DNA of 62,111 nt, filler included, from Candidatus Fermentibacterota bacterium (GTDB lineage Bacteria > JAFGKV01): the NCBI GenBank assembly GCA_016928395.1. It is 6 parts of 6 records of this genome, joined end to end, with 100 filler letters (N's around TTAATTAATTAA, not from the genome) between each part and the next. Parts side by side here need not be neighbours in the genome. Positions count along the whole stretch, not along the records: positions 1 to 7,031 come from JAFGKV010000262.1; 5 more parts are not named here. One strand, 5' to 3'. Position 1 is the stretch's first letter, and each line of letters opens with the position of its first letter. Below are positions 1 through 57,828 of this stretch, piece by piece. Below the pieces are notes generated by a model. That model was not told the origin of the DNA. It ran no database searches and saw only the letters and a list, made by a program, of their open reading frames with translations. The translations under genes and the position numbers were made by a program.

Positions 1-120
1 AGGTCATGCTCATGTCCCCGGACAGCACATAGGCCGATCCCGACCAGTAAGACTCGGAGGCGCAGACATGGTCGGCTCAGGAGCCTTGCGCCGCGACCCT
101 TAATTCATGGAGAACCGGCC

Positions 121-149
121 TTGACAAGGCTCGATCCCTTGCATAGACT
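121..149 (+). promoter_or_regulatory. sigma70-type promoter upstream of the RiPP precursor
   Basis: TTGACA (121-126), 17-nt spacer, TAGACT (144-149). Confidence 0.6.
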
Positions 150-295
150 GTTTTCGGCAGATGTACTCGTATAGTCGAAGGAGAACCTGAAGGCAGAAGG
201 GAGGTGCAGCAAGGGAGGAAGCATACGTCCGAACTGCTCCACCGAGGGGCCCCCCCCTCGACGACGGAAGAATCAAGGTAGTAGGTGGTAGTAGA

Positions 296-577
296 ATGGG
301 CAAGTACGAATCGCCAATTCTTATCCCCTTAGGGGAGATGGCCAAAGGGTCTGGACTCTGTGAAACGGGAAGCTCAGTTGCGCCGGTGACCTGCACGGTC
401 GGTGATGCCGATGCGGCGGTGCTTGATTGCACCGCTGGCTATACTGCAACGCAGGACTGCAGCGCGGGCCCCACAGCAACTCGCGATTGCACTGCCGGCA
501 CTGCCGCACTCAATGCGTGCACTGCGGGTACCGATGCGATAGCGGCGTGCACGGACGGCACTGCTGACACACCGTAG
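296..577 (+). CDS. putative RiPP precursor peptide with CxxG repeats (SynChlorMet-type cassette)
   Basis: 93 aa; leader MGKYESPILIPLG resembles the YxxPxL RRE-binding motif; core has 7 CxxG motifs, the last five at 10-aa spacing; upstream of PqqD and radical SAM genes. Confidence 0.8.
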   Translation: MGKYESPILIPLGEMAKGSGLCETGSSVAPVTCTVGDADAAVLDCTAGYTATQDCSAGPTATRDCTAGTAALNACTAGTDAIAACTDGTADTP

Positions 578-1266
578 GTTGGGGAATAGACGATTGCACT
601 GCCGCTAGCGGCTCGCGAGAGACCGCTTCGCGGCTGGCCTGACTCTGTAGCGCTATTTTGGGCGAGGATGATTCCTCCAGGCCGAGAATAGCGTTGGGTG
701 AGGAGCGATTGTTTTCCCGTCGACCTGTAGTCTCTTCTGATACCGAATTGCGGCACGTGAAGGTGCCAAGGAGATGGCACGATTGGAGAAGCAGGGTAGG
801 CGGCGCGCCGGGAGGCTGCAGGAGCCGCGGCCCACGACCCAGGCTGCCTGGCCCTCCGGCAATACGCCGCATGGTCAGGCTCCGGTCGTCCGCGCCTGGC
901 ACACTGCCGGTTCGAGAGGGCACGGGCAGTAGCGTATTCGTGGGCGCAACGGCGGTGTAGGCGTTCCGCACAGTCGAAGTCCAACCAGCCCCTGTGAGCG
1001 CCGCTCGGGAGGTTCTGGTGGCCTCTCCATTGCGCAGCGAGGGTTGCCGCGAGTGTGAACCCGGCTGCGCTTCGCAGGCCTGCGCATGAGCAAGCGTCAG
1101 GCCCTGCGTGTGATACGCGGCACCGGGTTTACCACGATCCGGCTGTCCTGCCCCGGGGGACGCCAAGCGAAACGACGACGCGATGACGACCGAGCGGGCG
1201 ATTGTCGCGTGCGGCAGGTCAGGCAGCGTTGTTGCCACAAGCGCGATTAGATGGAGAAAATGATCC

Positions 1267-1554
1267 ATGATTCAAACGGACAGACCGATCGCCAATCCCG
1301 TCGTTGTGCTCCGGGAGGAGTTCGCCGACTGGGCCGTGCTCTTCAATCCCGATACGGCCTATGCTGCAGGAACCAATCCTGTCGGTGTCGCAGTATGGAA
1401 ACTGATGGACGGTAAGAGAAGTCTCGACGATATCGTGTCGGAGATCCAGAACAGCTTTGAAGACACTCCGGACGCCGCCTTCAAAGAGATCGCCGCCTTC
1501 GTCAACACGCTCGCTGAGAACGGTTTTGTGGGGTTCGAGGTGGAGAACCAATAG
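1267..1554 (+). CDS. scmD: PqqD-family RiPP recognition element, SynChlorMet ScmD-like
   Basis: PIANPVVVLREEFADWAVLFNPDT...NPVGVAVWKLMDG...FVNTLAENGFV is typical of PqqD/ScmD. Confidence 0.85.
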   Translation: MIQTDRPIANPVVVLREEFADWAVLFNPDTAYAAGTNPVGVAVWKLMDGKRSLDDIVSEIQNSFEDTPDAAFKEIAAFVNTLAENGFVGFEVENQ

Positions 1555-1568
1555 TGGTGTCTCAGGTC

Positions 1569-1800
1569 ATGCGTGCGCCGTGCAGCCTGACCACTGATCA
1601 CTGCACGCTGCGATCTTCCCTGCCGCTACTGCTACTTCTTCAGCAACCCGGCGATGGTGTACCGGGATCTGCCTCCCGATGAATGGAGAAGCTTCTTCGC
1701 CGAACTGGGGTCGCTGGGCGTGCTGAGAGTCACCTTGGCAGGCGGAGAGCCGCCTATCGGGGAGGACCTGTGCGGGACAGGACAGCAGAAGACTGGATGA
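1569..1800 (+). pseudogene. scmE: frameshifted and truncated radical SAM gene, ScmE-like
   Basis: frame from 1597 reads ITARCDLPCRYCYFFSNPAMVYRDLPPDEWRSFFAELGSLGVLRVTLAGGEP and stops at 1800; ATG at 1569 is out of frame; not in ORF track. Confidence 0.75.
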
Positions 1801-1806
1801 CCCGGG

Positions 1807-2880
1807 ATGCCGACGCTCAATACCCTGTATTTCTACCTGACCGAAGGGTGTAACCTCGCATGTCGCCATTGTTGGATGGGGCCCCAGTTCCACGCCACAG
1901 GCAATCACTATCCCACCTTGCCGGTTGAATTATACGAGACGGCCATCCGTGAAGCTAGGCCGTTGGGGCTGAGTGGAGTCAAACTCACCGGCGGCGAGCC
2001 GTTGTTGCATCCCCACTTTGCCCGTTTGCTGGAGATTGTCCAGCGTGAAGAGTTGAAGCTGACGGTCGAGACCAACGGTCTGCTGTGCACGCCGGAGATT
2101 GCCGCTGAGATCGCCAAATCTCACAAACGATTCGTATCCGTCAGTATCGACGGAACCGACGCCGCGACCCACGAATGGGTGCGCGGTGTGCCGGGATCCT
2201 TCGAAGCGGCTCGACAGGCGGTGCGCAACCTTGTGGCCGCCGGCATCAGGCCGCAGGTCATCTTCACGGTGATGCGCAAAAATGCCGCGCAGGTGGACGC
2301 CATGGTGCGAATGGTCGCGGAACTGGGTGCGGGCTCGCTCAAGTTCAACGTGGTGCAGCCCACCGCCCGAGGCGAGAAGTTGCATGAAGACCAGGAGACC
2401 CTGTACATCGGCGACCTCATCGAGTTGGGGCGGCATGTGGAGCAGGAACTGGCGCCGAGGACCACGTTGAAGGTCTTCTTTCATTACCCACCTGCTTTTA
2501 GAGCCCTGCATCGCATCGCCGGCGGGGATGGGTGTGGTGCCTGTGGTATTTTCGGCATCCTGGGCGTCATCGCCAGCGGACACTATGCCCTGTGCGGCAT
2601 CGGCCAGCAGGTGCCGGAACTGGTCTTCGGCGAGGTGGGGAAGGACTCGTTAGAAGAGGTATGGCGAGAAAATGCCACCTTGAAAGAACTGCGAGAGGGC
2701 CTGCCCGAGCGACTGGAAGGGGTCTGCAGTCGCTGCCTGATGAAGAGGCGCTGCAGGGGCTCATGCATTGCTCAGAACTACTACAGCAAGGGCAGCCTGT
2801 GGGCGCCATACTGGTTCTGTGAACAGGCGGAAGAGGCGGGTCTCTTCCCACCTTCACGTGTGGGGACACGACCCGCATAG
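1807..2880 (+). CDS. scmF: radical SAM/SPASM peptide maturase, ScmF-like
   Basis: CNLACRHC motif, TGGEP, Cys-rich SPASM C-terminus (CGACG...ALCGIG...CSRC...CRGSC). Confidence 0.88.
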   Translation: MPTLNTLYFYLTEGCNLACRHCWMGPQFHATGNHYPTLPVELYETAIREARPLGLSGVKLTGGEPLLHPHFARLLEIVQREELKLTVETNGLLCTPEIAAEIAKSHKRFVSVSIDGTDAATHEWVRGVPGSFEAARQAVRNLVAAGIRPQVIFTVMRKNAAQVDAMVRMVAELGAGSLKFNVVQPTARGEKLHEDQETLYIGDLIELGRHVEQELAPRTTLKVFFHYPPAFRALHRIAGGDGCGACGIFGILGVIASGHYALCGIGQQVPELVFGEVGKDSLEEVWRENATLKELREGLPERLEGVCSRCLMKRRCRGSCIAQNYYSKGSLWAPYWFCEQAEEAGLFPPSRVGTRPA

Positions 2881-2902
2881 TCTCAGTTCGTCACTGCCGT
2901 CA

Positions 2903-4528
2903 ATGCCTATTCAGACTGACAGCGGGAGCATCCCCGGCGCCGTGTTCTTCGCCGCCTATGCTGGCCCCAGCATGAATCCGACTCTGCGCGAGCCGGAGAT
3001 CATGGAGATCCTGCCCTATGACACCAGGCCCCTGCGTGTGGGCGATGTGGTTCTGTTTCTGTCACCGGAGGCTCATCAGCCGGTCGTACATCGCATTGTA
3101 CGTGTGACCCCCGCAGGCATATCCACGCTCGGTGACAACAATACCCACCAGGATGAGCCTCTTCTGCATCCGAGGAGCATCAAAGGCCAGGTGGTGGCCG
3201 CGTGGCGCGGGCAGAGGCGGCGGAAGATCGCCGGCGGGCTGCGAGGCCGGCTGACGGGCCGCTGGCTTCGTTGCCTACTCGTCCTTCGCCGTGGCGCGTC
3301 TCCTCTGCTCTATCCCCTGTATCATGCCCTGTCACGCGGGGGGTTGATCGCCTGGTTGGTCCCTGATCGATTCCGGCCGCGCGTCGTCGTCTTTCACGCC
3401 CAAGGCCGGGATCAGTTTCAGCTTCTGCTGGGCCGGCGTGTCATTGGCCGATACGATGACTACAGGCATCGATGGCAGATCCAACGGCCGTTTCACGTGC
3501 TTGTGGGGGGAAGAGCCCTTCCAAGGCAGCAGGACAAGACCCGCCTGAGCCGCCGCGTCTCGATTGAACGGCGACGAACCGTGGGCCATCCACCGACGCG
3601 GGAAGTATGGCATAGCCTGGCTTTGGCTGATGGGAGTCATTGGACAATTGCCGCCGGGGATGAGGAAGCCGCATCCATCGTCGCACAACTGGGATGCGCG
3701 ATGCAGTTGCCCAAGACCACGGGCGAAACGGAACCTTTTCAGCACAGTAATCCCTGCCGACTTGTCGTCACGGTGGACGCTCACACGTCCGTGGCGGATT
3801 GTTATGTCCCGTTGGCATCTGGGAACGACGGCGTCGTTGCCTGCATTCTGAGTCCATGCGACAGCTGGGGCGGCCCATACGTCAATCTGGTGAGACTATC
3901 GCTCATCTTTGCTCGCGAGGCGCAGGCCCGCGGAGGAGTCCTCATACACGGTGCGCTTGCTGAACGGGATGGCAACGGCGTGATCCTGGTTGGGCCGGGC
4001 GGGACGGGAAAGACCACTGCCAGCAATCGCCTTCCGGCCCCGTGGCGCTCGCTGTGCGACGATACCACGCTGGTGGTGCGGGATCCGCACGGGAACTACC
4101 AGGCGCACCCCTGGCCCACCTGGAGCCGCTTCCAGGACGGGGGTCCGGGCGGCACGTGGGACGTGCAGAACGCCGTGCCTCTCAAGGGCATCTTCATTCT
4201 AGCCCAGGCGGTTGAAGATCGGGTGGAACAGGTAGGCCCCGGGCAGGCGGTCAGCCTGCTCGTGGAGGGGGTGAGACAGGCCTCGATGTTCATGCCGCTG
4301 GGCCTGTTCAGAGACGAAGTCCGCACACTGTATCTTGAAGCGTTCAACAACCTTTGCGCCTTGGCCCGGATCGTACCTGCGCACATGCTTCACATCAGTC
4401 TGACCGGCCCCTTCTGGCAAGAGATTGAGCGGGCGCCTAAGGGAGACACGCGTGCGGAAACGCAGGAAACGAGCGTCAAAAACCAACCAGAATCAAAGCT
4501 CCGGAGCGTCGAAAGCGGGAGCGGATAG
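2903..4528 (+). CDS. scmC: fusion of S26 signal peptidase-like domain and HprK-related kinase (ScmC-like)
   Basis: N-term GPSMNPTL, VVHRIV, GDNN; C-term IHGAL...GPGGTGKTT...LCDD; start moved to ATG 2903, after the scmF stop. Confidence 0.78.
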   Translation: MPIQTDSGSIPGAVFFAAYAGPSMNPTLREPEIMEILPYDTRPLRVGDVVLFLSPEAHQPVVHRIVRVTPAGISTLGDNNTHQDEPLLHPRSIKGQVVAAWRGQRRRKIAGGLRGRLTGRWLRCLLVLRRGASPLLYPLYHALSRGGLIAWLVPDRFRPRVVVFHAQGRDQFQLLLGRRVIGRYDDYRHRWQIQRPFHVLVGGRALPRQQDKTRLSRRVSIERRRTVGHPPTREVWHSLALADGSHWTIAAGDEEAASIVAQLGCAMQLPKTTGETEPFQHSNPCRLVVTVDAHTSVADCYVPLASGNDGVVACILSPCDSWGGPYVNLVRLSLIFAREAQARGGVLIHGALAERDGNGVILVGPGGTGKTTASNRLPAPWRSLCDDTTLVVRDPHGNYQAHPWPTWSRFQDGGPGGTWDVQNAVPLKGIFILAQAVEDRVEQVGPGQAVSLLVEGVRQASMFMPLGLFRDEVRTLYLEAFNNLCALARIVPAHMLHISLTGPFWQEIERAPKGDTRAETQETSVKNQPESKLRSVESGSG

Positions 4529-4631
4529 GGCGCGACCGTTCCCGGCGAAGGATCCCGGCTGTGATGGGCCGCAAATCGCTGACCTGCACTCCGCCCAGGG
4601 CGCCTACGTTCCGCCATCCGTTTCAGTCGAA

Positions 4632-6626
4632 TCACGCGCCGATTTTCAGCCAAAGCCGGATGTTTGGCAGGATCCCTGAACCCGGGATGTCGGACGGAAA
4701 GACCTCAAACGAGATCTCGTTAGGGACATTGGGTTTGAGCAAGATGGACGGGAACCCAACGGTGTACCATGCCGCAGACCGCCGGTCGATTGTCAGGAGC
4801 TCGACGTCCTCTCCGTTAACTCGTACGAAGACGCGCAGGGGCGAGTCGGCGCCGGTGACCAGTTGGAGAGTGATGGCGGAGTAGCCCTTGACCTCCCGGA
4901 CCCCCCGCCCGGGGATGAACCACACCGCCGACTTCTTGGCTAAGGTCCGACGACTGGGGCCCCAGCTTTTCGCGGATTGAACGCTCCAATCGTGGAAGTA
5001 GGCAGTGATGCCGTCGGCCATCGAGACCTCCCTGCCGAGCGGAAACGTGGACAACCCCGCGGTCCTGTGGTCAACGAGGCGGCGTTCCACCCGAAGGCGG
5101 CTCGCAAGGAACTGCGCGTAGCGCCACTTGAAGAGATCTTCTTGGTAGACATCGATATCCGGCCTCGAGTTCCACCGAAGCGTCCACACGTTGAACAACC
5201 CCTGGTACGTGTGCATGAAGATGCTCACAATGGACGCGAGTAGAAACGCGAAAAGGGCTACACGCCGACGCCGCGTCTTCCTCTCCGCGAGATGTTCCCA
5301 CGCGATGAGGGTGAGGATCATGACTGCCGGGAACGCCTCGGTGAACACCCGAGGCCCATAGCAGTGCCCGCCATGCCATCGGAGTGGCCGCGCCACCCCA
5401 GCACAATGCAGTCCGAACCATGCGACCGCGAGCCGGAGCAGTGGATCTCTTCGTACGGCGCGATACTGAAGGGCGAGAACCGCGCCTGCGACGACGAAAA
5501 AGGGGCAGAACACGAGAAGGCCCCGGGAAGGGCTCACCAGCGACCCATTCACGGCAGAGATCGTCAGCGAAAGCGGCAGTGGCAGGAGCCTCCGTGCGAG
5601 GGTGTCGTGTCCCGCCACCAGAATCACCATGAGCCCCACTGTCACGAGCAGCAGTACGACGGCACCTCTCTCGGCCAGACGCCTCGTCCGCGACATGGTG
5701 GCTGACGTTCTCCGCACCACGCGATATCCGCCCACCGCGATGATCACGATACCCGCCAGCCCGACGAGCATGAGAGTTGGCTGCGGAAGACGCTTCAGGG
5801 GAGAGTAGTAGTCGGGCAGGAAGCGCCCGAACTCAAGGAGTGAGTATACGACGAAGGGGACGATCGCGAGTCCCATAGAGACCAGCACTCTACCGCCGTC
5901 TCGCGCACTCCGGAAAAAGATGAGCCCAAGGACAACCAGCGCGAATACTCCAGCCGTGGGTCTGCACAGAACGGCGAAGGCCAGCAGCACGCCAAGAAGC
6001 CAGGGCTTCAGGCTTGACCCTCTCCTCACATGCCTGGCGATGAGCACTAGGCAAAGCAGCACGAAGACAGTGGCGAAATCCGAACTCCACAGGGCCGTGC
6101 CCATGGTGCTGATCAGCGGGCTGCCGCACACGAAGGCAGTGGCAAGCACCAGGCTGGCGGTTTCGCCTGCGAAGCAACGCGAGAGGATGAAGGCGAGTAG
6201 AGCCGTGAAGGCGACGAGCGTAGCAGATATCAGGTTTTGAAGCCTGGCATCAGCCTCCGCGTCAACCATGTCCTCACCGGCGAGGTTCGCCAGCCACACA
6301 AAGGGCACGCTCGCCAGGGCGCTCCCCACCGGGAACGAGTAGTAGCAGTGCCCGCGGATCAGTCTGTACTTGCCCGAGAATTCGACTAGAACCTTCGGGG
6401 AAGGTACGGAGGTGCACTCGAAGTAGGGATCGAGCTTCAGCGTACCGGTCTTCACGAGAGCCTGCGCCGTCAAAAGCGTTCCCTGGGAGTCGCTGCCGGA
6501 ATAGTCGATGGGCGAAAGAAACGCGGCGAAGAACACCAGGATCATGAGGCATAGGATGCCCGGCTTGATGAGCCTCAGTGCTCCGCCTGGCGGCTTCATC
6601 CGGTCGCCGGGTTCGTATTCCCTCAT
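4632..6626 (-). CDS. polytopic membrane protein, GT-C/ArnT-PMT-like glycosyltransferase
   Basis: many hydrophobic helices; LCRPT, SPSRGLLVFCP and GGHCYGPR motifs. Confidence 0.6.
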   Translation of the reverse strand: MREYEPGDRMKPPGGALRLIKPGILCLMILVFFAAFLSPIDYSGSDSQGTLLTAQALVKTGTLKLDPYFECTSVPSPKVLVEFSGKYRLIRGHCYYSFPVGSALASVPFVWLANLAGEDMVDAEADARLQNLISATLVAFTALLAFILSRCFAGETASLVLATAFVCGSPLISTMGTALWSSDFATVFVLLCLVLIARHVRRGSSLKPWLLGVLLAFAVLCRPTAGVFALVVLGLIFFRSARDGGRVLVSMGLAIVPFVVYSLLEFGRFLPDYYSPLKRLPQPTLMLVGLAGIVIIAVGGYRVVRRTSATMSRTRRLAERGAVVLLLVTVGLMVILVAGHDTLARRLLPLPLSLTISAVNGSLVSPSRGLLVFCPFFVVAGAVLALQYRAVRRDPLLRLAVAWFGLHCAGVARPLRWHGGHCYGPRVFTEAFPAVMILTLIAWEHLAERKTRRRRVALFAFLLASIVSIFMHTYQGLFNVWTLRWNSRPDIDVYQEDLFKWRYAQFLASRLRVERRLVDHRTAGLSTFPLGREVSMADGITAYFHDWSVQSAKSWGPSRRTLAKKSAVWFIPGRGVREVKGYSAITLQLVTGADSPLRVFVRVNGEDVELLTIDRRSAAWYTVGFPSILLKPNVPNEISFEVFPSDIPGSGILPNIRLWLKIGA

Positions 6627-7031: not shown

Positions 7032-7131
7032 NNNNNNNNNNNNNNNNNNNNNNNNNNNNNNNNNNNNNNNNNNNNTTAATTAATTAANNNNNNNNNNNNN
7101 NNNNNNNNNNNNNNNNNNNNNNNNNNNNNNN
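7032..7131. other. artificial contig spacer
   Basis: N runs flanking TTAATTAATTAA, 100 nt; same at 35958-36057, 42665-42764, 50686-50785, 57729-57828. Confidence 0.97.
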
Positions 7132-7296
7132 AACCCTAACCTGTAGCTCCACGCCACGGCACCGGAAGTTGCATCACGTATCGTCCGGGCGGGCCCGGGG
7201 CCCCCACTCGTTTGAGAGTTCATCCACGCACTCGTACTCGGATGTGCGCCTCTCGAGAGCGATACTGATACCGACTCCGAGCCCCGCCTTCCCGCA

Positions 7297-7322
7297 GGCG
7301 ACCAGAGACGGTCGCCCCTACG
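7297..7322 (-). repeat. GTAG-type REP-like palindrome
   Basis: CGTAGGGGCGACCGTCTCTGGTCGCC on the minus strand; 25/26 identical to 39716-39741. Confidence 0.7.
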
Positions 7323-7356
7323 ACGGCAACGGTTTCTCGTAGCGCTGAGCGGGCCT

Positions 7357-7419
7357 GATAGCTGACAGCCGATAGCTGACAGCCGATAGCTGACAGCCGA
7401 TAGCTGACAGCCGATAGCC
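7357..7419. repeat. tandem 14-bp repeat (GATAGCTGACAGCC) x4.5
   Basis: four perfect copies; related heptamers at about 39529-39555. Confidence 0.9.
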
Positions 7420-7622
7420 ACCAGCCGGCCGTAGTCTCAACCTCGAAAACCCTGGGTGCTCTCGCATCCAGAGGCCTTGCTGAGGACTGCAAGCGAAGCG
7501 AAGCCGGCAGTCGGCGGTACGCAGCATTCAGGATCCAGAATCCAGAAGTCAGGATTCAGAAGGCCCATCCATCCGTCCGTCCAATCATCCAATCATCCGA
7601 TCGTCCAGTCGGCAGTCAGCAA

Positions 7623-10532
7623 TCAGCAGTATCTTCCGCATTCCGCGCTCCGCATTCCGCACTCAGTCGTCTCCTCACTCCTGCCTTCGCGAAGCGAGGC
7701 GAGGACAACCATGGGCCTGATGACGCCCGCACGAATCTGCGTTCTCGTGTAGAGGCTGGCCACGCGTCCATCGGCGCCCGCAAGGGTTGCGCGACAACCG
7801 TTTCCCATGGGGACTGCGCCGAACCCCTCGGTCAGGACCACGGGGAAGGGAAGATCCTCGTCGCCGGTGACGCCCGTGGCGATCTCTCGCCCCGCGAATC
7901 GAACCCAGTCGGAGGCCGGTACCGAGGGTGCGACAACGCCGCGGACCCCCGCGGCGCGGCAGCCTTCCAGGAAGGCATGGTCGATGGGCTCGGGGCTGAT
8001 CACCACGGCCCCGGCGTGTTCATCCGGCCCAAAGGAGCCTGCCACAACCCGGCACGGCCCAAATCCCTCTCCACCGAACCCGATGGCCCCGTGGATGATG
8101 ATTCCCTGCCCGGAGAGGGTCGCTGATCGCCCAGGCACAACGTCGGTGACGGTTCCCGCCACGGATCCGACGGTGACCAGCGGTTGCAGGTCGTAATGAA
8201 GCACGACCTCGCCCCGGTCGGTGTCGATCTCCTTGAGGATACCCGAGCGGGGCGCCTTGATGGGCAGGCGGTTCCCGCTTCCCCGTACCAGCTCTTGGCC
8301 CGCCTGCACAAAGTCGCCGACCTGGAACTCCAGCCGGCTCCTGATGTGCCCCTTCGGAATGCCAAGGAAGCCCGCGATGTCGACTCGCACGGGTTTGCGC
8401 GCGTAATCCTGGATCTCCCGCAGGACGATGGTGCCGTGTTCCTCGACGGCACTGACATGCCCCCGCACGGGGGAGTTGCAATAGAACTCAACGCCCAGGA
8501 ATGCCTCGCGCCCGCGGAAAATCCGTTGCCCCATGGCGACCTCGTCGCCTTCCTTCACCAGAATCCCGTCGCGAATCGCCTCGGGTGAGAAGCGACGCTG
8601 GTACCCGAGCAACCGCCGCACATCCACCAGGAAGACCCGGGGGGGAGTCAGCACATTCTCGCCCACAGGGGTGGCAGGTTCCACCCGGTCTCCCAAACTC
8701 ACAAAAATCGTTCCCTCGTACGGCAGCTCGCGACGAATGTCGAACGGACCCTCAACTACGGTCGAACGCGTGCGGCGCGGCGGGATGGTCACGGCTCTCG
8801 GGCGGGTCATTGGCCAGGGTTCACCAAAGGAGAGCAGCGGCTCGCCGTTGAACGCCGTACCCCGTCCCCGGCAATCAAACAGGACGGGCAGCGTCGTCTC
8901 CAGCGTTACCTCATCGGTCTGCCCGTACAGGCGGATACCCGGCGCAGGTGTAATCTCCCACACTCCGCCGTCCGGCGCGAAGAAGACCTCTCCTCCCCGG
9001 AGCTCGCGCCGAGCGCCGCTTCTGCGATCCCGCAGGGAAACCATCACCGCCTCATGCACTTCACCGGTGGGCGCCACCACGTAGGCAAGGTCGCGGAGAG
9101 ACTCCTCGAAGAGCTCCAGTGCGGCAGCGGGATTTACCGTGGAGAGCACCCCCAGATGCGGGCTTCGGAAGGAGGTGTCCACGGCAAGCTTGGTGAGGCC
9201 GGTGGGAAGGAATCCGTCAACGAGCATCCGGATCGCTTCGTGAGTTGATGCATTGGAGAACACGCCGCCCGCCCCAATCATCACGTCGATGTCGGAGACG
9301 TGGAAGAGACTGCTGGCGTCGACTCCGTGGAACGTCTCCTGAAAGGGATCGAAGTCAACGCGGTTGCGGAGCCTGTCCAGGAGGCCAACCTTGGCCACCG
9401 TGAAGTTCATATCCTGATGCTGGCGCCATGCCACGGAGATGCCCGCTATGGCAGCGGCGTGCTCCATGAGGAGTTCTGCTTCTTCGGTGGGAATACTGGT
9501 CGGATTGAGCATCTTGTTGGCCGCGTACTCGCGGATGTGGGCTTCCTCGATACCGGCCGGGAGGTGCCGCATCACCGCATCGATGCCTGCGGCGGCAATG
9601 GTGGCGCACAGAGAGTAGCTCACGCCGATATTGGCGGCCACCGTGCGGCGGTACTCGCCATAGATGTTGGAAAAGACATCCGTCGTGGCGCCGCCCATGT
9701 CCGCCATGACAACATTCTGACCATGCCGGCGCGCATACAACTCAAGAATCCTCTCCACCGCCGTTGGAGTCGGTATGATATCTGCGGCTGCCCATCCCTT
9801 CAGAGTGCGGTAGCCGGGTGCACGCTCCATGACGGTATCCATGAACAGCCTGAGGATGGCCTCCTTGGCGGGGCGCAGATTGGTGTCGGTCAATGTCGGG
9901 CGGACATTGTCCACCATGTGCAGATCGAAGGAGCCGGCCAGCACCGGGGCGACATATTCCCTGGCGTCTACATTGCCACAGAAGACCAGTGGGATGCGAC
10001 CTTCCGGATCGAACTTTGCGGTTGGCTGGGCCAGGCGCAGGATCTCGGCCAGCCGCACCACATTGGCAATGTCGCCGCCATCGATGCCGCCGGCCATGAG
10101 GATCAGATCAGGATGCAAAGCGCGGATGATCCGCATGGTGTGAATGGTAGGCGTTCGGTCATCGATGGTGAAGACGCGGAGGATCACGCCCCCGGCGCCC
10201 TGGGCCGCCATCTGAGCGATCCGGCCGGTATCGGTGGAGGTCAGGCCCACCACCAGCATCTGCAGCCCCCCGCCGGCCGAACTGGTGGTCAGGTACGGTA
10301 CCATCGGCACGCCTGATTCGTCCAGAATCTGCACGCCGGCCTGCCTGCCCACCGCCTCGGCTGCGGCACGCACCCCGATGCACACGTCTTCCGAGGGCTT
10401 CTCCACCGTAGTGGGCACGTTCACGCCTGCCGCGATGCGGTAGCCTCCGTCGCGACGGGCGAGCAGGATACCCTTGGTGGTAGTGCTGCCGACATCGGTC
10501 ACAAACACGTGACCTGTATGATCATCCAACAT
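7623..10532 (-). CDS. glutamate mutase L (MutL/GlmL, ASKHA fold) protein fused to an uncharacterised C-terminal region
   Basis: DVGSTTTK, TSSAGGGLQM, LMAGGIDGG, DMGGATTDV; about 350 extra C-terminal aa; start set at ATG 10532. Confidence 0.75.
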   Translation of the reverse strand: MLDDHTGHVFVTDVGSTTTKGILLARRDGGYRIAAGVNVPTTVEKPSEDVCIGVRAAAEAVGRQAGVQILDESGVPMVPYLTTSSAGGGLQMLVVGLTSTDTGRIAQMAAQGAGGVILRVFTIDDRTPTIHTMRIIRALHPDLILMAGGIDGGDIANVVRLAEILRLAQPTAKFDPEGRIPLVFCGNVDAREYVAPVLAGSFDLHMVDNVRPTLTDTNLRPAKEAILRLFMDTVMERAPGYRTLKGWAAADIIPTPTAVERILELYARRHGQNVVMADMGGATTDVFSNIYGEYRRTVAANIGVSYSLCATIAAAGIDAVMRHLPAGIEEAHIREYAANKMLNPTSIPTEEAELLMEHAAAIAGISVAWRQHQDMNFTVAKVGLLDRLRNRVDFDPFQETFHGVDASSLFHVSDIDVMIGAGGVFSNASTHEAIRMLVDGFLPTGLTKLAVDTSFRSPHLGVLSTVNPAAALELFEESLRDLAYVVAPTGEVHEAVMVSLRDRRSGARRELRGGEVFFAPDGGVWEITPAPGIRLYGQTDEVTLETTLPVLFDCRGRGTAFNGEPLLSFGEPWPMTRPRAVTIPPRRTRSTVVEGPFDIRRELPYEGTIFVSLGDRVEPATPVGENVLTPPRVFLVDVRRLLGYQRRFSPEAIRDGILVKEGDEVAMGQRIFRGREAFLGVEFYCNSPVRGHVSAVEEHGTIVLREIQDYARKPVRVDIAGFLGIPKGHIRSRLEFQVGDFVQAGQELVRGSGNRLPIKAPRSGILKEIDTDRGEVVLHYDLQPLVTVGSVAGTVTDVVPGRSATLSGQGIIIHGAIGFGGEGFGPCRVVAGSFGPDEHAGAVVISPEPIDHAFLEGCRAAGVRGVVAPSVPASDWVRFAGREIATGVTGDEDLPFPVVLTEGFGAVPMGNGCRATLAGADGRVASLYTRTQIRAGVIRPMVVLASLREGRSEETTECGMRSAECGRYC

Positions 10533-10578
10533 GGCTCCCTCCTGGCAGATGCGCCGCCTGGGCGCGCGCTGTCTGCTA

Positions 10579-11055
10579 TCAATTCCCCTGTGGCGGCACA
10601 ACCGCGTGCAAGGCGCTCCTGATCGCCTCCTGAATCCTCCGCACTTCTTCGTCACCACGGTACGGTCGGCGCTGCCAGATCATCCTCTTCGAGAACAGGC
10701 CATCCTTCCGCCGCCTCGGCATCACGTGCACGTGGAGGTGGGGGACGCTCTGACTGACGATGGTATTGATAGCAAGAAACGAGCCCTCCGCGCCCAGCCC
10801 TTCCTGCACGGCCCATGCCAGGCGTTTTGCCACGCGAAAGAGCGGCTGCACCATGATGTCTGGGAGGTCGAGCAGAGTCGCGCAGTGGATCCTGGGCACC
10901 ACAAGACAGTGGCCGTGCACGAGAGGACGGTGGTCAAGAAACGCCATGGTGTGTTCGTCTTCGAACACCACATGGCTCGGCGCACGACCGGCAATGATGT
11001 CGCAGAGCGCGCATGCGGCCACCTGGTCGAAAAGATGGAGTTCCACGAGATTCAC
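10579..11055 (-). CDS. HIT family hydrolase
   Basis: QSVPHLHVHVMPR histidine triad. Confidence 0.9.
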   Translation of the reverse strand: MNLVELHLFDQVAACALCDIIAGRAPSHVVFEDEHTMAFLDHRPLVHGHCLVVPRIHCATLLDLPDIMVQPLFRVAKRLAWAVQEGLGAEGSFLAINTIVSQSVPHLHVHVMPRRRKDGLFSKRMIWQRRPYRGDEEVRRIQEAIRSALHAVVPPQGN

Positions 11056-11389
11056 CTACCGGGAAGGATGGAAAGAACGGAGGACCCGTGAAGTGAGAAG
11101 ACCGAAGCTCCATCGTCCAGTATGGAGGGACGCGATTCCTCGCGTCCGCGGTGCGGACGCGCAATGGCGGACCGGCGAAGCGGGTCCCTCCAACGGGGGG
11201 ATTCCTGAGGAAAGACGCGCACGGCCCCGCATCCAGTGGTGCGGGATCAGTCGCGAAGGAGCAAATCCCTCCCAACCTCCCTTTGTCAAAGGGAGGAGCT
11301 GGTGGGCAGTCCGGCGTGTCTCCCCACTCCTCACTCCTCACTCCTCACTCCTATCTCCTCACTTCGAAGAGAGCGAAGTGAGCCAAGCC

Positions 11390-12160
11390 CTACTGCAGCT
11401 CACATTCCAGGTGGCGCCGGATTCGATCTCGAACCTTGTCCCAGGATGGCGTGATGAGGAAGCTTTCCTCTATATTCTCGACCATCCGGGCGAACAGCGG
11501 CCAGGGAATCGCCAGGGTCAGCTCCGATCCCCCGACACAGGGCCGCGCCGACACGTCGAACATGCCCAACACGGCCCGGGGACGCTCGGAGGCCAGCTCC
11601 GTGTAGGGATAGTAGACGATAGAGGCGCATCCGGCGCCCATGGGCGCGATGACCCCATGAAGATCCACTCGGTCGTAGTTGACCAAGGTAAACAGCCCGG
11701 CCAGCACATCGCAGGTGGCAAAGAAGATGACCACCGCCGGCTCGTCCTTCTCGCGGAGCAGGTCCCATGGGGAGAACACGAGATGGCGCGCCGGGGCATG
11801 AAACGGCGCCATGTCCTCCATCATCCGGTGGACGATCTCGGGCGACTTCTTGTAGCGTTCACCCTCCAGTTTCCCCGGGATGCCGCAGGAGAGGAAGTAA
11901 TCGAACTGCGGGCTTATCTCCTGGGTGAATCCCGTGTAGCGCGTGCCGCCTCCGCACCCGACGGTATCGGCGCCAAACGACAGGGCATTCCCCTGTCGTA
12001 CCCCGGAGAGATCGCAGATGAGGCACCGGTGGCCCTTGGCCACGGGAGCCTGCGTAATACCTTTGGGCTCATCCTCATACCACAGGGCGATGGGCAGCTC
12101 GGCACCGGGGAAGTAGCGCCGCCATTCATCGGTGAAGTGTTTCTTGAGAGCGCGATCCAT
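11390..12160 (-). CDS. DUF169 family protein
   Basis: CGGGTRYTGF, EGERYKKSPE, AGCASI, GMFDVSAR. Confidence 0.75.
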   Translation of the reverse strand: MDRALKKHFTDEWRRYFPGAELPIALWYEDEPKGITQAPVAKGHRCLICDLSGVRQGNALSFGADTVGCGGGTRYTGFTQEISPQFDYFLSCGIPGKLEGERYKKSPEIVHRMMEDMAPFHAPARHLVFSPWDLLREKDEPAVVIFFATCDVLAGLFTLVNYDRVDLHGVIAPMGAGCASIVYYPYTELASERPRAVLGMFDVSARPCVGGSELTLAIPWPLFARMVENIEESFLITPSWDKVRDRIRRHLECELQ

Positions 12161-35957: not shown

Positions 35958-36549
35958 NNNNNNNNNNNNNNNNNNNNNNNNNNNNNNNNNNNNNNNNNNN
36001 NTTAATTAATTAANNNNNNNNNNNNNNNNNNNNNNNNNNNNNNNNNNNNNNNNNNNNAGACACCGCTCCCGGTTCTGCTCGATGAGACCGATGGCGTCAG
36101 ATCGAATCCCGGGGTCGATGTCGTGGGTGTTCTGAGTCATGGGGCTTCCCTCAGCCTCTGTCAGATGGGGGACGAATCAGTGAGCTGTGGAGACTTCTCC
36201 AGGTTAGCTCCGAACGGGGGCGTGAGTCAAGCGCACCGTCCCTTCCCGTGCGCAGGACTGCGAACCGGGCTGGGGATCGTGGGGAGGGTTCTCCCGACAT
36301 GGGAGCCGGTCAGGAGGTGAGGCTGATGCACGGCAGGGTTCGGTCGGGCCTGAAGGCCGTCCGGCGAGGCGATCCAGTGGGATGCTTGACCCGATTAGGC
36401 TATCATGCGATACTGGTATCATGGTGTCTCTATCCTGAGATGGCTCCACAACGCGGAACCGGGCGAACCGGCAAGGCTTCGGCTGCCATTCCGGATCGAG
36501 ATTAACGAAGACATGGGGACGTGAGGGGTTGATCCTGAGGGAGGCACCC

Positions 36550-42664: not shown

Positions 42665-42764
42665 NNNNNNNNNNNNNNNNNNNNNNNNNNNNNNNNNNNN
42701 NNNNNNNNTTAATTAATTAANNNNNNNNNNNNNNNNNNNNNNNNNNNNNNNNNNNNNNNNNNNN

Positions 42765-50685: not shown

Positions 50686-50785
50686 NNNNNNNNNNNNNNN
50701 NNNNNNNNNNNNNNNNNNNNNNNNNNNNNTTAATTAATTAANNNNNNNNNNNNNNNNNNNNNNNNNNNNNNNNNNNNNNNNNNNN

Positions 50786-57566: not shown

Positions 57567-57828
57567 ATCCGATCTCGCCTCTCCCGCTTCGCCATTCCAA
57601 ACTACAAACGCTTCCCGGTTCTATTCCTGCAGCAAAGCGACCCGCGCATCCGTTCCTCATTGGTAGCCGGGCCTCTCTCTGGTCGACTCCTGACACGAGT
57701 TGTCGCAGGGGCTGCCAGATGATCGACGNNNNNNNNNNNNNNNNNNNNNNNNNNNNNNNNNNNNNNNNNNNNTTAATTAATTAANNNNNNNNNNNNNNNN
57801 NNNNNNNNNNNNNNNNNNNNNNNNNNNN

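Follow-up and report, generated by a model that had tools for sequence, protein, structure and literature searches.

The SynChlorMet cassette is represented in NCBIfam by models for a PqqD-family peptide-recognition protein (ScmD, TIGR04248), a protein with a P-loop domain (ScmC, TIGR04249), two radical S-adenosylmethionine (SAM)/SPASM enzymes (ScmE, TIGR04250, and ScmF, TIGR04251) and a precursor peptide (ScmA, TIGR04252, named SCM_precur_ScmA). Here we describe a copy of this cassette, headed by a gene for a 93-residue ScmA-like peptide, at the start of a 62,111-nucleotide stretch of DNA (the window) from a Candidatus Fermentibacterota bacterium (GenBank assembly GCA_016928395.1). An original prediction, made from the sequence of the window, had proposed this peptide as the substrate of the cassette, giving a peptide made by ribosomes and modified after translation (RiPP). 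The analysis presented below indicates that the open reading frame (ORF) very likely encodes a genuine ScmA-type precursor, serving a SynChlorMet-type cassette as its substrate, and this is the best explanation of the locus as a whole.

Two other kinds of system serve for comparison. The leaders of lasso peptides carry a YxxPxL motif at positions -17 to -12 and usually a Thr at -2 (PMC10368454), and lasso-peptide kinases share a His-Lys-Asp-Asp set arranged as His...GxxGxGK[ST]...Asp-Asp (PMC9266682, PMC10368454). In the phosphorylated lasso systems the kinase phosphorylates the precursor, a PqqD-type B1 protein speeds the reaction and a nucleotidyltransferase homologue adds a hexose to the phosphate (PMC9266682, PMC10368454). 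In Methanococcus voltae the SPASM enzyme CrpC (TIGR04463) forms thioether (ranthionine) links within the repeated Cys motifs of CrpA, with a loss of 2 Da per Cys (PMC13692751). Freyrasin, which is matured by the SPASM enzyme PapB, reportedly has one thioether per CxxxD repeat.

The precursor peptide

The translation of the ORF (Table 1) is identical to the peptide quoted in the original prediction. Residues 1-20 make up the leader, with the pattern Y4xxP7xL9xxxG13...S19-G20, and residues 21-93 make up the core, which contains seven CxxG units (in order CETG, CTVG, CTAG, CSAG, CTAG, CTAG and CTDG). All seven Cys residues (positions 22, 33, 45, 55, 65, 75 and 85) lie inside such a unit, and the core has seven Gly residues, each at Cys+3; when the core was shuffled 200,000 times, Gly never fell at +3 of every Cys. 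The spacings between successive Cys residues (11, 12, 10, 10, 10 and 10) agree with the ten-residue period that had been noted for the last five units.

A Pfam scan of the peptide returned no match. The NCBIfam model TIGR04252 matches it with an E value of 8e-7 (29.2 bits; curated cutoff 35), residues 4-51, comprising the leader and the first three CxxG units, being aligned to positions 1-47 of the 49 in the model. A precursor model for the SynChlorMet cassette therefore already exists, its role being taken from the model name and the alignment, and the premise of the original prediction that the precursor had not been identified has to be given up. The peptide is like SynChlorMet ScmA in this alignment of the leader and first units, and its partners ScmD, ScmF and ScmC pass TIGR04248, TIGR04251 and TIGR04249, respectively. 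It differs in that the cores of its clade are longer, with up to ten Cys. By its sequence it is a sub-threshold homologue of ScmA, here called ScmA-like, that falls outside the membership defined by the model.

To place the peptide among its relatives, loci were collected by a search with ScmF using one genome per species. This gave 41 loci, of which 39 contain a true ScmF (53-89% identity) and two contain distant radical SAM genes. When the small ORFs of the 41 loci were searched by phmmer with the window peptide, 26 of them, spread over 24 loci, gave a match. A hidden Markov model built from 24 seeds, the window peptide included, detected ScmA-like ORFs at 31 of the 39 scmF loci, with four weak matches among them (E values of 0.01-0.065: L021, L034, L036 and, in L030, the third ORF). 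The contig ends before scmD in all eight loci that lack such an ORF (L007, L010, L012, L013, L023, L029, L032 and L039). The homologous peptides that had been sought near other Scm cassettes are thus present, and the misses are cuts at contig ends. On the 26 locus peptides TIGR04252 gave no match at 35 bits and four matches at E ≤ 0.01. Its cutoff therefore excludes the whole clade, leaving most such precursors unannotated.

The leader consensus of the ScmA-like peptides reads K-Y-E-S-P-I-L-V-P-L-G-E-M-A-K-G-S-G and is followed by C-x-x-G-S and then by C-[TS]-A-G units. Across 24 sequences there is no variation at Y4, P7, L12, G13, G18, G20, C22 or G25, and conservation of S26 reaches at least 90%. 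At the protein level the leader is conserved across loci whose DNA is 66-68% identical or cannot be aligned. When 1.84 billion representative proteins were searched, 74 matches were obtained at E ≤ 1e-3; the three that exceed 200 aa (P0006, P0007 and P0012) were set aside as low-complexity tandem-repeat proteins that are unrelated to ScmA. A protein atlas labels the nearest clusters 'hypothetical protein'. Core statistics were taken from the 85 peptides, of 98, with a delimitable leader, a set in which loci- and library-derived sequences are not de-duplicated. Gly is at +3 for 458 of the 502 core Cys residues, the Cys-Cys spacing is ten in 200 of 417 cases and 11 in a further 81, and the cores hold from two to ten Cys. 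Besides Gly(+3), Thr or Ser is found at +1 in 56% and Ala at +6 in 45%, with no other conserved acceptor residue.

The position of the peptide gene varies between cassettes: it comes first in the operon of the window and after scmF in L031 and L033-L035. Some cassettes have two ScmA-like genes (L024, 3872-4096 and 4355-4498; L027, 474-707 and 4354-4578). In L030 (7185-11398) there are three successive pairs, each an ScmA-like gene (7185-7574, 8663-9013 and 10056-10466) followed by its own ScmC paralogue (7605-8549, 9004-10059 and 10448-11398), and then a stand-alone S26-type peptidase. This pairing hints that each ScmC is matched to its particular peptide.

Three other identities were considered for the peptide and rejected. 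A Sec signal peptide does not fit the ScmA leader, the hydrophobic run of which, judged by eye, is just five residues. For a double-glycine bacteriocin leader served by a C39-peptidase exporter, the leader end is G-S-G and the exporter scanned, that of L001, carries ABC_membrane and ABC_tran domains only. As regards an ACGX-repeat system, the peptide has no match to that family and ScmF scores 78.2 bits on its radical SAM model (cutoff 400).

Upstream of the gene, the proposed promoter fared less well. The TTGACA-17-TAGACT string is present (Table 1), but two promoter-like sites were observed against 1.2 expected in the 4.8 kb scanned, so that the string alone is no evidence of a promoter. The region around it gave no alignment to related loci.

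Table 1. Features of the cassette and its surroundings, in window coordinates.
Feature	Position	Strand	Description and evidence
Sigma-70-like promoter match, TTGACA-17-TAGACT	121-149	+	10 of 12 positions matched
Shine-Dalgarno-like AGGTGG	283-288	+	7 nt 5′ of the ATG; read from the sequence
scmA-like precursor gene	296-577	+	ATG start, 93 aa; TIGR04252 match, linkage and CxxG pattern
Conserved two-tier hairpin in RNA just 3′ of scmA	604-639	+	Within the conserved block 592-645; alignment of 11 loci
Spacer segment unique to this copy	710-1210		~500 bp, 67% GC; no match in 41 loci
scmD, PqqD-family peptide-recognition protein	1267-1554	+	95 aa; TIGR04248 101.1 bits (cutoff 100); PF05402 E 5e-14
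scmE remnant (radical SAM/SPASM)	1555-1806	+	Start lost, 2-bp frameshift, ~0.9 kb deleted after the GGEP motif
scmF, radical SAM/SPASM enzyme, intact	1807-2880	+	357 aa; TIGR04251 533.6 bits (cutoff 400); Radical_SAM and SPASM domains
Fusion gene, N-terminal S26-type (archaeal/ER signal-peptidase-like) domain	2903-3487	+	TIGR02228 E 2.2e-10, 40.6 bits (cutoff 51.85); SEC11C E 0.019
Fusion gene, ScmC part: small alpha/beta domain and PEPCK/HprK-like P-loop domain	3488-4528	+	TIGR04249 177.9 bits (cutoff 125)
Unrelated membrane protein, multi-pass	4632-6626	-	664 aa; LA_3751/LA_3752 putative glycosyltransferase family E 3.8e-12; PMT_2; weak

The enzymes encoded by the cassette

The genes scmA, scmD, scmF and scmC lie on one strand within 4.3 kb. 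In a profile search against NCBIfam each of ScmD, ScmF and ScmC scored above its curated cutoff (Table 1), as the original prediction had anticipated, and with leader-plus-CxxG homologues at 31 of the 39 scmF loci this upholds its proposal of the peptide as the cassette precursor. We have little doubt that the peptide is the substrate of the cassette.

The window differs from the SynChlorMet model cassette in that its ScmC is fused to an S26-type peptidase and its scmE is a remnant. ATG 2903 is the most probable start of the fusion gene, ahead of TTG 2768, and gives a protein of 541 aa that occurs in the same form in the protein collection; close homologues are named 'SynChlorMet cassette protein ScmC' in databases. 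ScmC has 1126 relatives at E ≤ 1e-5, and the HprK_rel_A model (TIGR04352) matches it with an E value of 4e-5 and a score far below the model's cutoff of 200. PF27840 is precomputed for all listed homologues of window 3488-4525; the Pfam scan of the window protein did not report this family.

In ScmC, H349, the P-loop K370 (G-x-G-K), D386 and D387 are invariant in 32 sequences. A structure model of ScmC built from these 32 sequences (pLDDT 80.9) was compared with the PDB, and the best folds were PEP carboxykinases (E 4.4e-9), with TM-scores of only 0.37-0.43; a model of the whole 540-aa fusion from a nine-row alignment had a pLDDT of 35.4 and hence was unused for the fold search. HPr kinase shares the PEP carboxykinase fold. 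In the peptidase domain Ser23, His63 and Asp78-Asn79-Asn80 (protein numbering) are invariant in nine fused homologues, and we take Ser23, His63 and Asp78, from what is known of SipW and Sec11, to be the putative catalytic set. The stand-alone peptidase homologues score higher on TIGR02228 than the fused domain of the window, that of L030 passing the cutoff (52.6 bits) and that of L024 falling just short of it (49.9 bits).

Comparison with known systems and proposed pathway

The phosphorylated lasso clusters (paeninodin PadeK, pseudomycoidin PsmK/PsmN and Bradymonas BsfK/BsfB1/BsfN) resemble the Scm cassettes in a discrete PqqD-type protein and an HPr-kinase-like P-loop kinase and, should ScmA be cut after Gly20, also in a YxxPxL leader motif at -17 to -12 and a hydroxyl residue at -2. 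The motif of the PadeK/BsfK type, His...GxxGxGK[ST]...Asp-Asp, is found in ScmC on a PEPCK/HprK-like fold. The lasso clusters also have a nucleotidyltransferase and an ATP-binding cassette (ABC) exporter beside the kinase, and related Scm cassettes carry an NTP_transf_5 protein and an ABC exporter. By analogy, ScmC and NTP_transf_5, where they occur together, seem to form the same module as lasso kinase and nucleotidyltransferase. The conserved families in a clustering of the locus ORFs are ScmA, ScmD, the radical SAM enzymes, the peptidase/ScmC, the ABC exporter and NTP_transf_5, with none beyond these and neither a lasso cyclase nor a B2 protease family among them. The cassette is therefore not a lasso system, and the relation is one of likeness, not membership. 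In place of the cyclase and protease the Scm cassettes have two SPASM enzymes and an S26-type peptidase, and the core is a Cys-x-x-Gly repeat. Unlike the substrates of most lasso kinases, ScmA has no conserved C-terminal Ser, and if cut after Gly20 it would have at -2 Ser19 and not the Thr usual in lasso leaders.

CrpA is like ScmA in having an N-terminal leader-like region followed by a tandem Cys motif, and its modified motifs include CAGM and PCAGD (PMC13692751). It differs in its greater size, its 17-residue repeat and its C-x-x-Q/D motif. CrpC has its recognition element inside the enzyme, whereas Scm has a separate PqqD protein, and neither a kinase nor a peptidase belongs to the Crp cluster. 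The radical SAM family is a different one too: TIGR04463 is missing from the best 25 of 85 NCBIfam matches for ScmF and from the best 25 of 74 for ScmE. Freyrasin and PapB are alike in combining a single-Cys unit that is repeated with a maturase of the SPASM type. With 64.5 bits for ScmF and 91.2 bits for ScmE on the PapB model (cutoff 340), neither is a member, and an acidic acceptor is not conserved in the ScmA repeat.

On these comparisons the following pathway can be proposed. ScmD, as a PqqD-type recognition protein, would grip the lasso-like leader, in which Y4, P7 and L9 would lie at -17, -14 and -12 if the cut is after Gly20. ScmE and ScmF in intact cassettes, and ScmF alone here, would then modify each Cys-x-x-Gly unit of about ten residues. 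With one Cys per 10-11 residues, one modification per unit is the simplest reading, and one thioether ring per Cys would be the most likely outcome. ScmC would phosphorylate Ser or Thr, a candidate acceptor being Ser26, which is nearly invariant in C-x-x-G-S. Removal of the leader at the small-residue site G-S-G, which fits the small-residue rule at -3 and -1, would fall to the fused S26-type Ser-His peptidase, and in intact cassettes the ABC exporter would release the product.

By analogy, the cassette may work like a hybrid of a phosphorylated-lasso-type module and a SPASM system that acts on repeat substrates, as CrpA/CrpC or freyrasin and PapB do. A fuller version of this idea, which we put forward tentatively and regard as rather doubtful, combines a module of lasso type (a leader with its recognition protein and kinase, a nucleotidyltransferase and an exporter) with two SPASM enzymes and a signal-peptidase-like protease that stand in for the lasso cyclase and protease, would give a product that is a chain of 5-10 small rings, one to each ten-residue Cys-x-x-Gly unit, with a phosphate or a phospho-linked sugar, and would mark a large, experimentally untouched RiPP class.

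Evidence against the assignment and the condition of this copy

Several observations weigh against the ScmA-type assignment and the pathway proposed for it. The score of the peptide on TIGR04252 is below the 35-bit cutoff. The absence of a conserved C-terminal Ser sets the ScmA peptides apart from the substrates of most lasso kinases. The named profiles nearest to ScmF are AhbD, MftC and NirJ2 (128-132 and 115 bits), and those of thioether synthases score lower (StsB, 84.8 bits, cutoff 625; AlbA, 74.6 bits, cutoff 850; PapB, cutoff 340). The predicted complex of ScmD with leader residues 1-35 is weakly supported, with a score of 0.40 against 0.19 for the best of three controls. Finally, a tblastn search (E ≤ 1e-3) of the whole 62-kb window found no homologue of the ABC exporter or of NTP_transf_5, and with scmE a pseudogene and the exporter gone the local pathway may be dead.

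The complex prediction lends weak support to binding of the leader by ScmD. Among solved complexes 58 of 80 attain its mark, as do two of 110 mismatched pairs, counts that hold roughly here as our own alignments were supplied to the prediction; at scores of 0.60 or below it is reached by seven of the 80 solved complexes and by both of the passing mismatches. Between the ScmD-leader runs at least 85% of the contacts are shared, and the partner pLDDT is at least 54. The pass may reflect likeness to solved PqqD-leader complexes.

The state of scmE is clear from alignment to the related cassette of L001, in which L001 4480-5077 is the counterpart of window 1211-1770, and L001 5976-8702 that of window 1782-4508. 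Just 252 bp separate scmD from scmF in the window. A 37-bp loss has removed the start of scmE, and the stretch 1597-1770 matches positions 9-65 of the 358 in TIGR04250 (E 1.6e-15). A 272-nt contig from a second study covers 1551-1822 with nine differences and no gap, spanning both the frameshift and the deletion joint. The three separate lesions point to a true pseudogene and away from a single assembly error. Elsewhere scmE is present in 30 of the 39 loci (366-477 aa, mostly ~376 aa), where it adjoins scmF and lies mostly between scmD and scmF; that of L001 scores 559.7 bits on TIGR04250. The form with two radical SAM enzymes, ScmE and ScmF, is absent from the window, where ScmF alone is intact. 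The gene set described in the original prediction stands as far as ScmD, ScmF and ScmC are concerned, but the set is not intact, since scmE is a remnant and the exporter is absent.

The ABC exporter of related cassettes (~606 aa) is found in 24 loci (phmmer E ≤ 1e-20 to that of L001), mostly directly 3′ of scmC, and the nucleotidyltransferase NTP_transf_5 (PF14907) is found in 11. At the place of the exporter, the window has the gene for the 664-aa membrane protein (Table 1), which is convergent to the cassette. The window is made of joined contigs, with filler at 7032-7131, 35958-36057, 42665-42764, 50686-50785 and 57729-57828 (five pairs of 44-base N runs, 12 bases apart), so that what follows 7031 here need not follow the cassette in the organism.

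The strongest alternative is one that accepts scmA as a real member of its family and takes the cassette as a decaying relic from which no mature product is made, scmE, exporter and nucleotidyltransferase being gone. The three independent lesions in scmE, the lack in the window of the exporter and nucleotidyltransferase found in related loci, the unique 500-bp insert between scmA and scmD and the unrelated convergent gene after scmC all favour a relic. Set against them, scmA, scmD, scmF and the 541-aa fusion are all open, with DNA 80-86% identical to that of L001; L015 and L027 also have no scmE between scmD and scmF; and the same scmE-deleted layout in the contig of the second study indicates that the lineage persists. 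The cassette lies on a contig of 7,031 bp in a bin that is perhaps incomplete, and the exporter could be elsewhere in the organism. We consider a relic quite possible, with a probability somewhat short of even. That this copy still makes a finished, exported product is in turn doubtful, although clearly conceivable.

Nature of the modification

For an ScmA-type precursor, the next question is what is done to its Cys residues. By analogy with repeat substrates of known SPASM enzymes, we give a Cys thioether as the main modification an even chance. The radical SAM enzymes could instead carry out other chemistry (C-C or C-O crosslinks, epimerization, or an oxidation of Cys like that of anaerobic sulfatase maturases), and the CxxG units could be metal or Fe-S ligands or form disulfides in the product. 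Both ScmF and ScmE score closer to the AhbD, MftC, NirJ and WgkB profiles than to those of AlbA, StsB and PapB, and the sequence hence does not point to thioether chemistry; scores below the cutoffs lower the probability that either enzyme is itself a PapB or an AlbA, and thioether chemistry would still be compatible with them. The conserved acceptors, limited to Gly(+3) and the preferences at +1 and +6 given above, likewise suit other chemistries, as do the source organisms, which from their record titles we take to be largely of anaerobic lineages. On the other hand, a near-invariant Cys with Gly at +3, one Cys to a unit, resembles ring-per-repeat thioether substrates, freyrasin reportedly has one ring per CxxxD repeat, and CAGM and PCAGD are among the motifs of CrpA shown to be modified. 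On balance we regard a non-thioether outcome as rather unlikely.

A frame left open by chance in GC-rich DNA, or a small protein foreign to the cassette, is a very improbable identity for the ORF: the region is 62% GC with many overlapping open frames on both strands and the peptide has no Pfam match, but the overlapping minus-strand ORFs have no Pfam match either, the leader is conserved where the DNA has diverged, the gene holds a fixed place adjoining scmD or scmF in 31 loci, and shuffling did not reproduce the CxxG pattern.

The spacer between scmA and scmD

The ScmA-like gene is followed by a 690-bp spacer before scmD, which contains the segment unique to this copy (Table 1). No second copy of 710-1210 was found within the window, an Rfam scan of 1-5000 at E ≤ 1 gave nothing and neither did a Pfam scan of five ORFs in 103-1268 (four of them overlapping 710-1210; antisense included).

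Just 3′ of scmA, a block that can form a two-tier hairpin is conserved in the aligned loci; it lies at 4317-4370 in L001 and is found in nine further loci. In the alignment 84.8% of cells are paired, compared with 29-40% for slid controls, five of nine pairs show a compensatory change and none of 500 shuffles reaches the covariation score; as the structure was drawn by eye from the same sequences, these counts are biased. The wider region 570-720 folds with a z-score of -6.24, and RNAalifold on 13 loosely aligned post-scmA regions gave no consensus structure (-0.02 kcal/mol). The hairpin is not a classic terminator since no T-run follows it. It may be a stabilizing or attenuating stem between the precursor and the enzyme genes.

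Contigs from two RNA libraries match the window exactly, one of 166 nt on 2974-3139, in the peptidase domain, and one of 220 nt by its first 75 nt on 1-75. These matches are compatible with transcription, although DNA present in such libraries would look alike. The scmA gene (296-577) is left uncovered by the contigs of the four runs compared, which is silent as to its expression.

Distribution and significance

ScmF is 71-89% identical between bins that are labelled as many phyla, including Aminicenantes, Thermodesulfobacteriota, Brocadiaceae, Acidobacteriota, Verrucomicrobia, Kiritimatiellia, Anaerolineales, Gammaproteobacteria, Nitrospirae and Clostridia. Provided that the bins are correct, this level of identity suggests horizontal spread of the cassette, which mis-binned short contigs could inflate.

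Literature searches by the name of the cassette, the names of the models and TIGR04248-04252 found no paper, supplements being outside their scope, and searches by gene content found no paper on the cassette. The supplements to a compendium of ~15,000 RiPP radical SAM enzymes (PMC10288494) may list ScmE/ScmF groups, as may the data sets of PMC13692751. The peptide is not the first claimed SynChlorMet precursor, but belongs to a known and uncharacterized kind. What appears to be new, on the basis of sequence, is an unannotated member of the ScmA kind in a clade that TIGR04252 misses.

The main use of the finding is as a lead for reconstitution and for the repair of the ScmA model, in a family that is large, as the number of ScmC relatives indicates. 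The repeat logic of the ScmA-like peptides, with a Cys, a Gly at +3 and a period of 10-11, together with a lasso-like leader and kinase module, makes for concrete predictions that can be tested. The lineage from which scmE has been deleted is a natural experiment on the division of labour between the two radical SAM enzymes, and if the hybrid of lasso-type module and SPASM enzymes is correct, lineages without scmE would show which rings ScmF makes alone.

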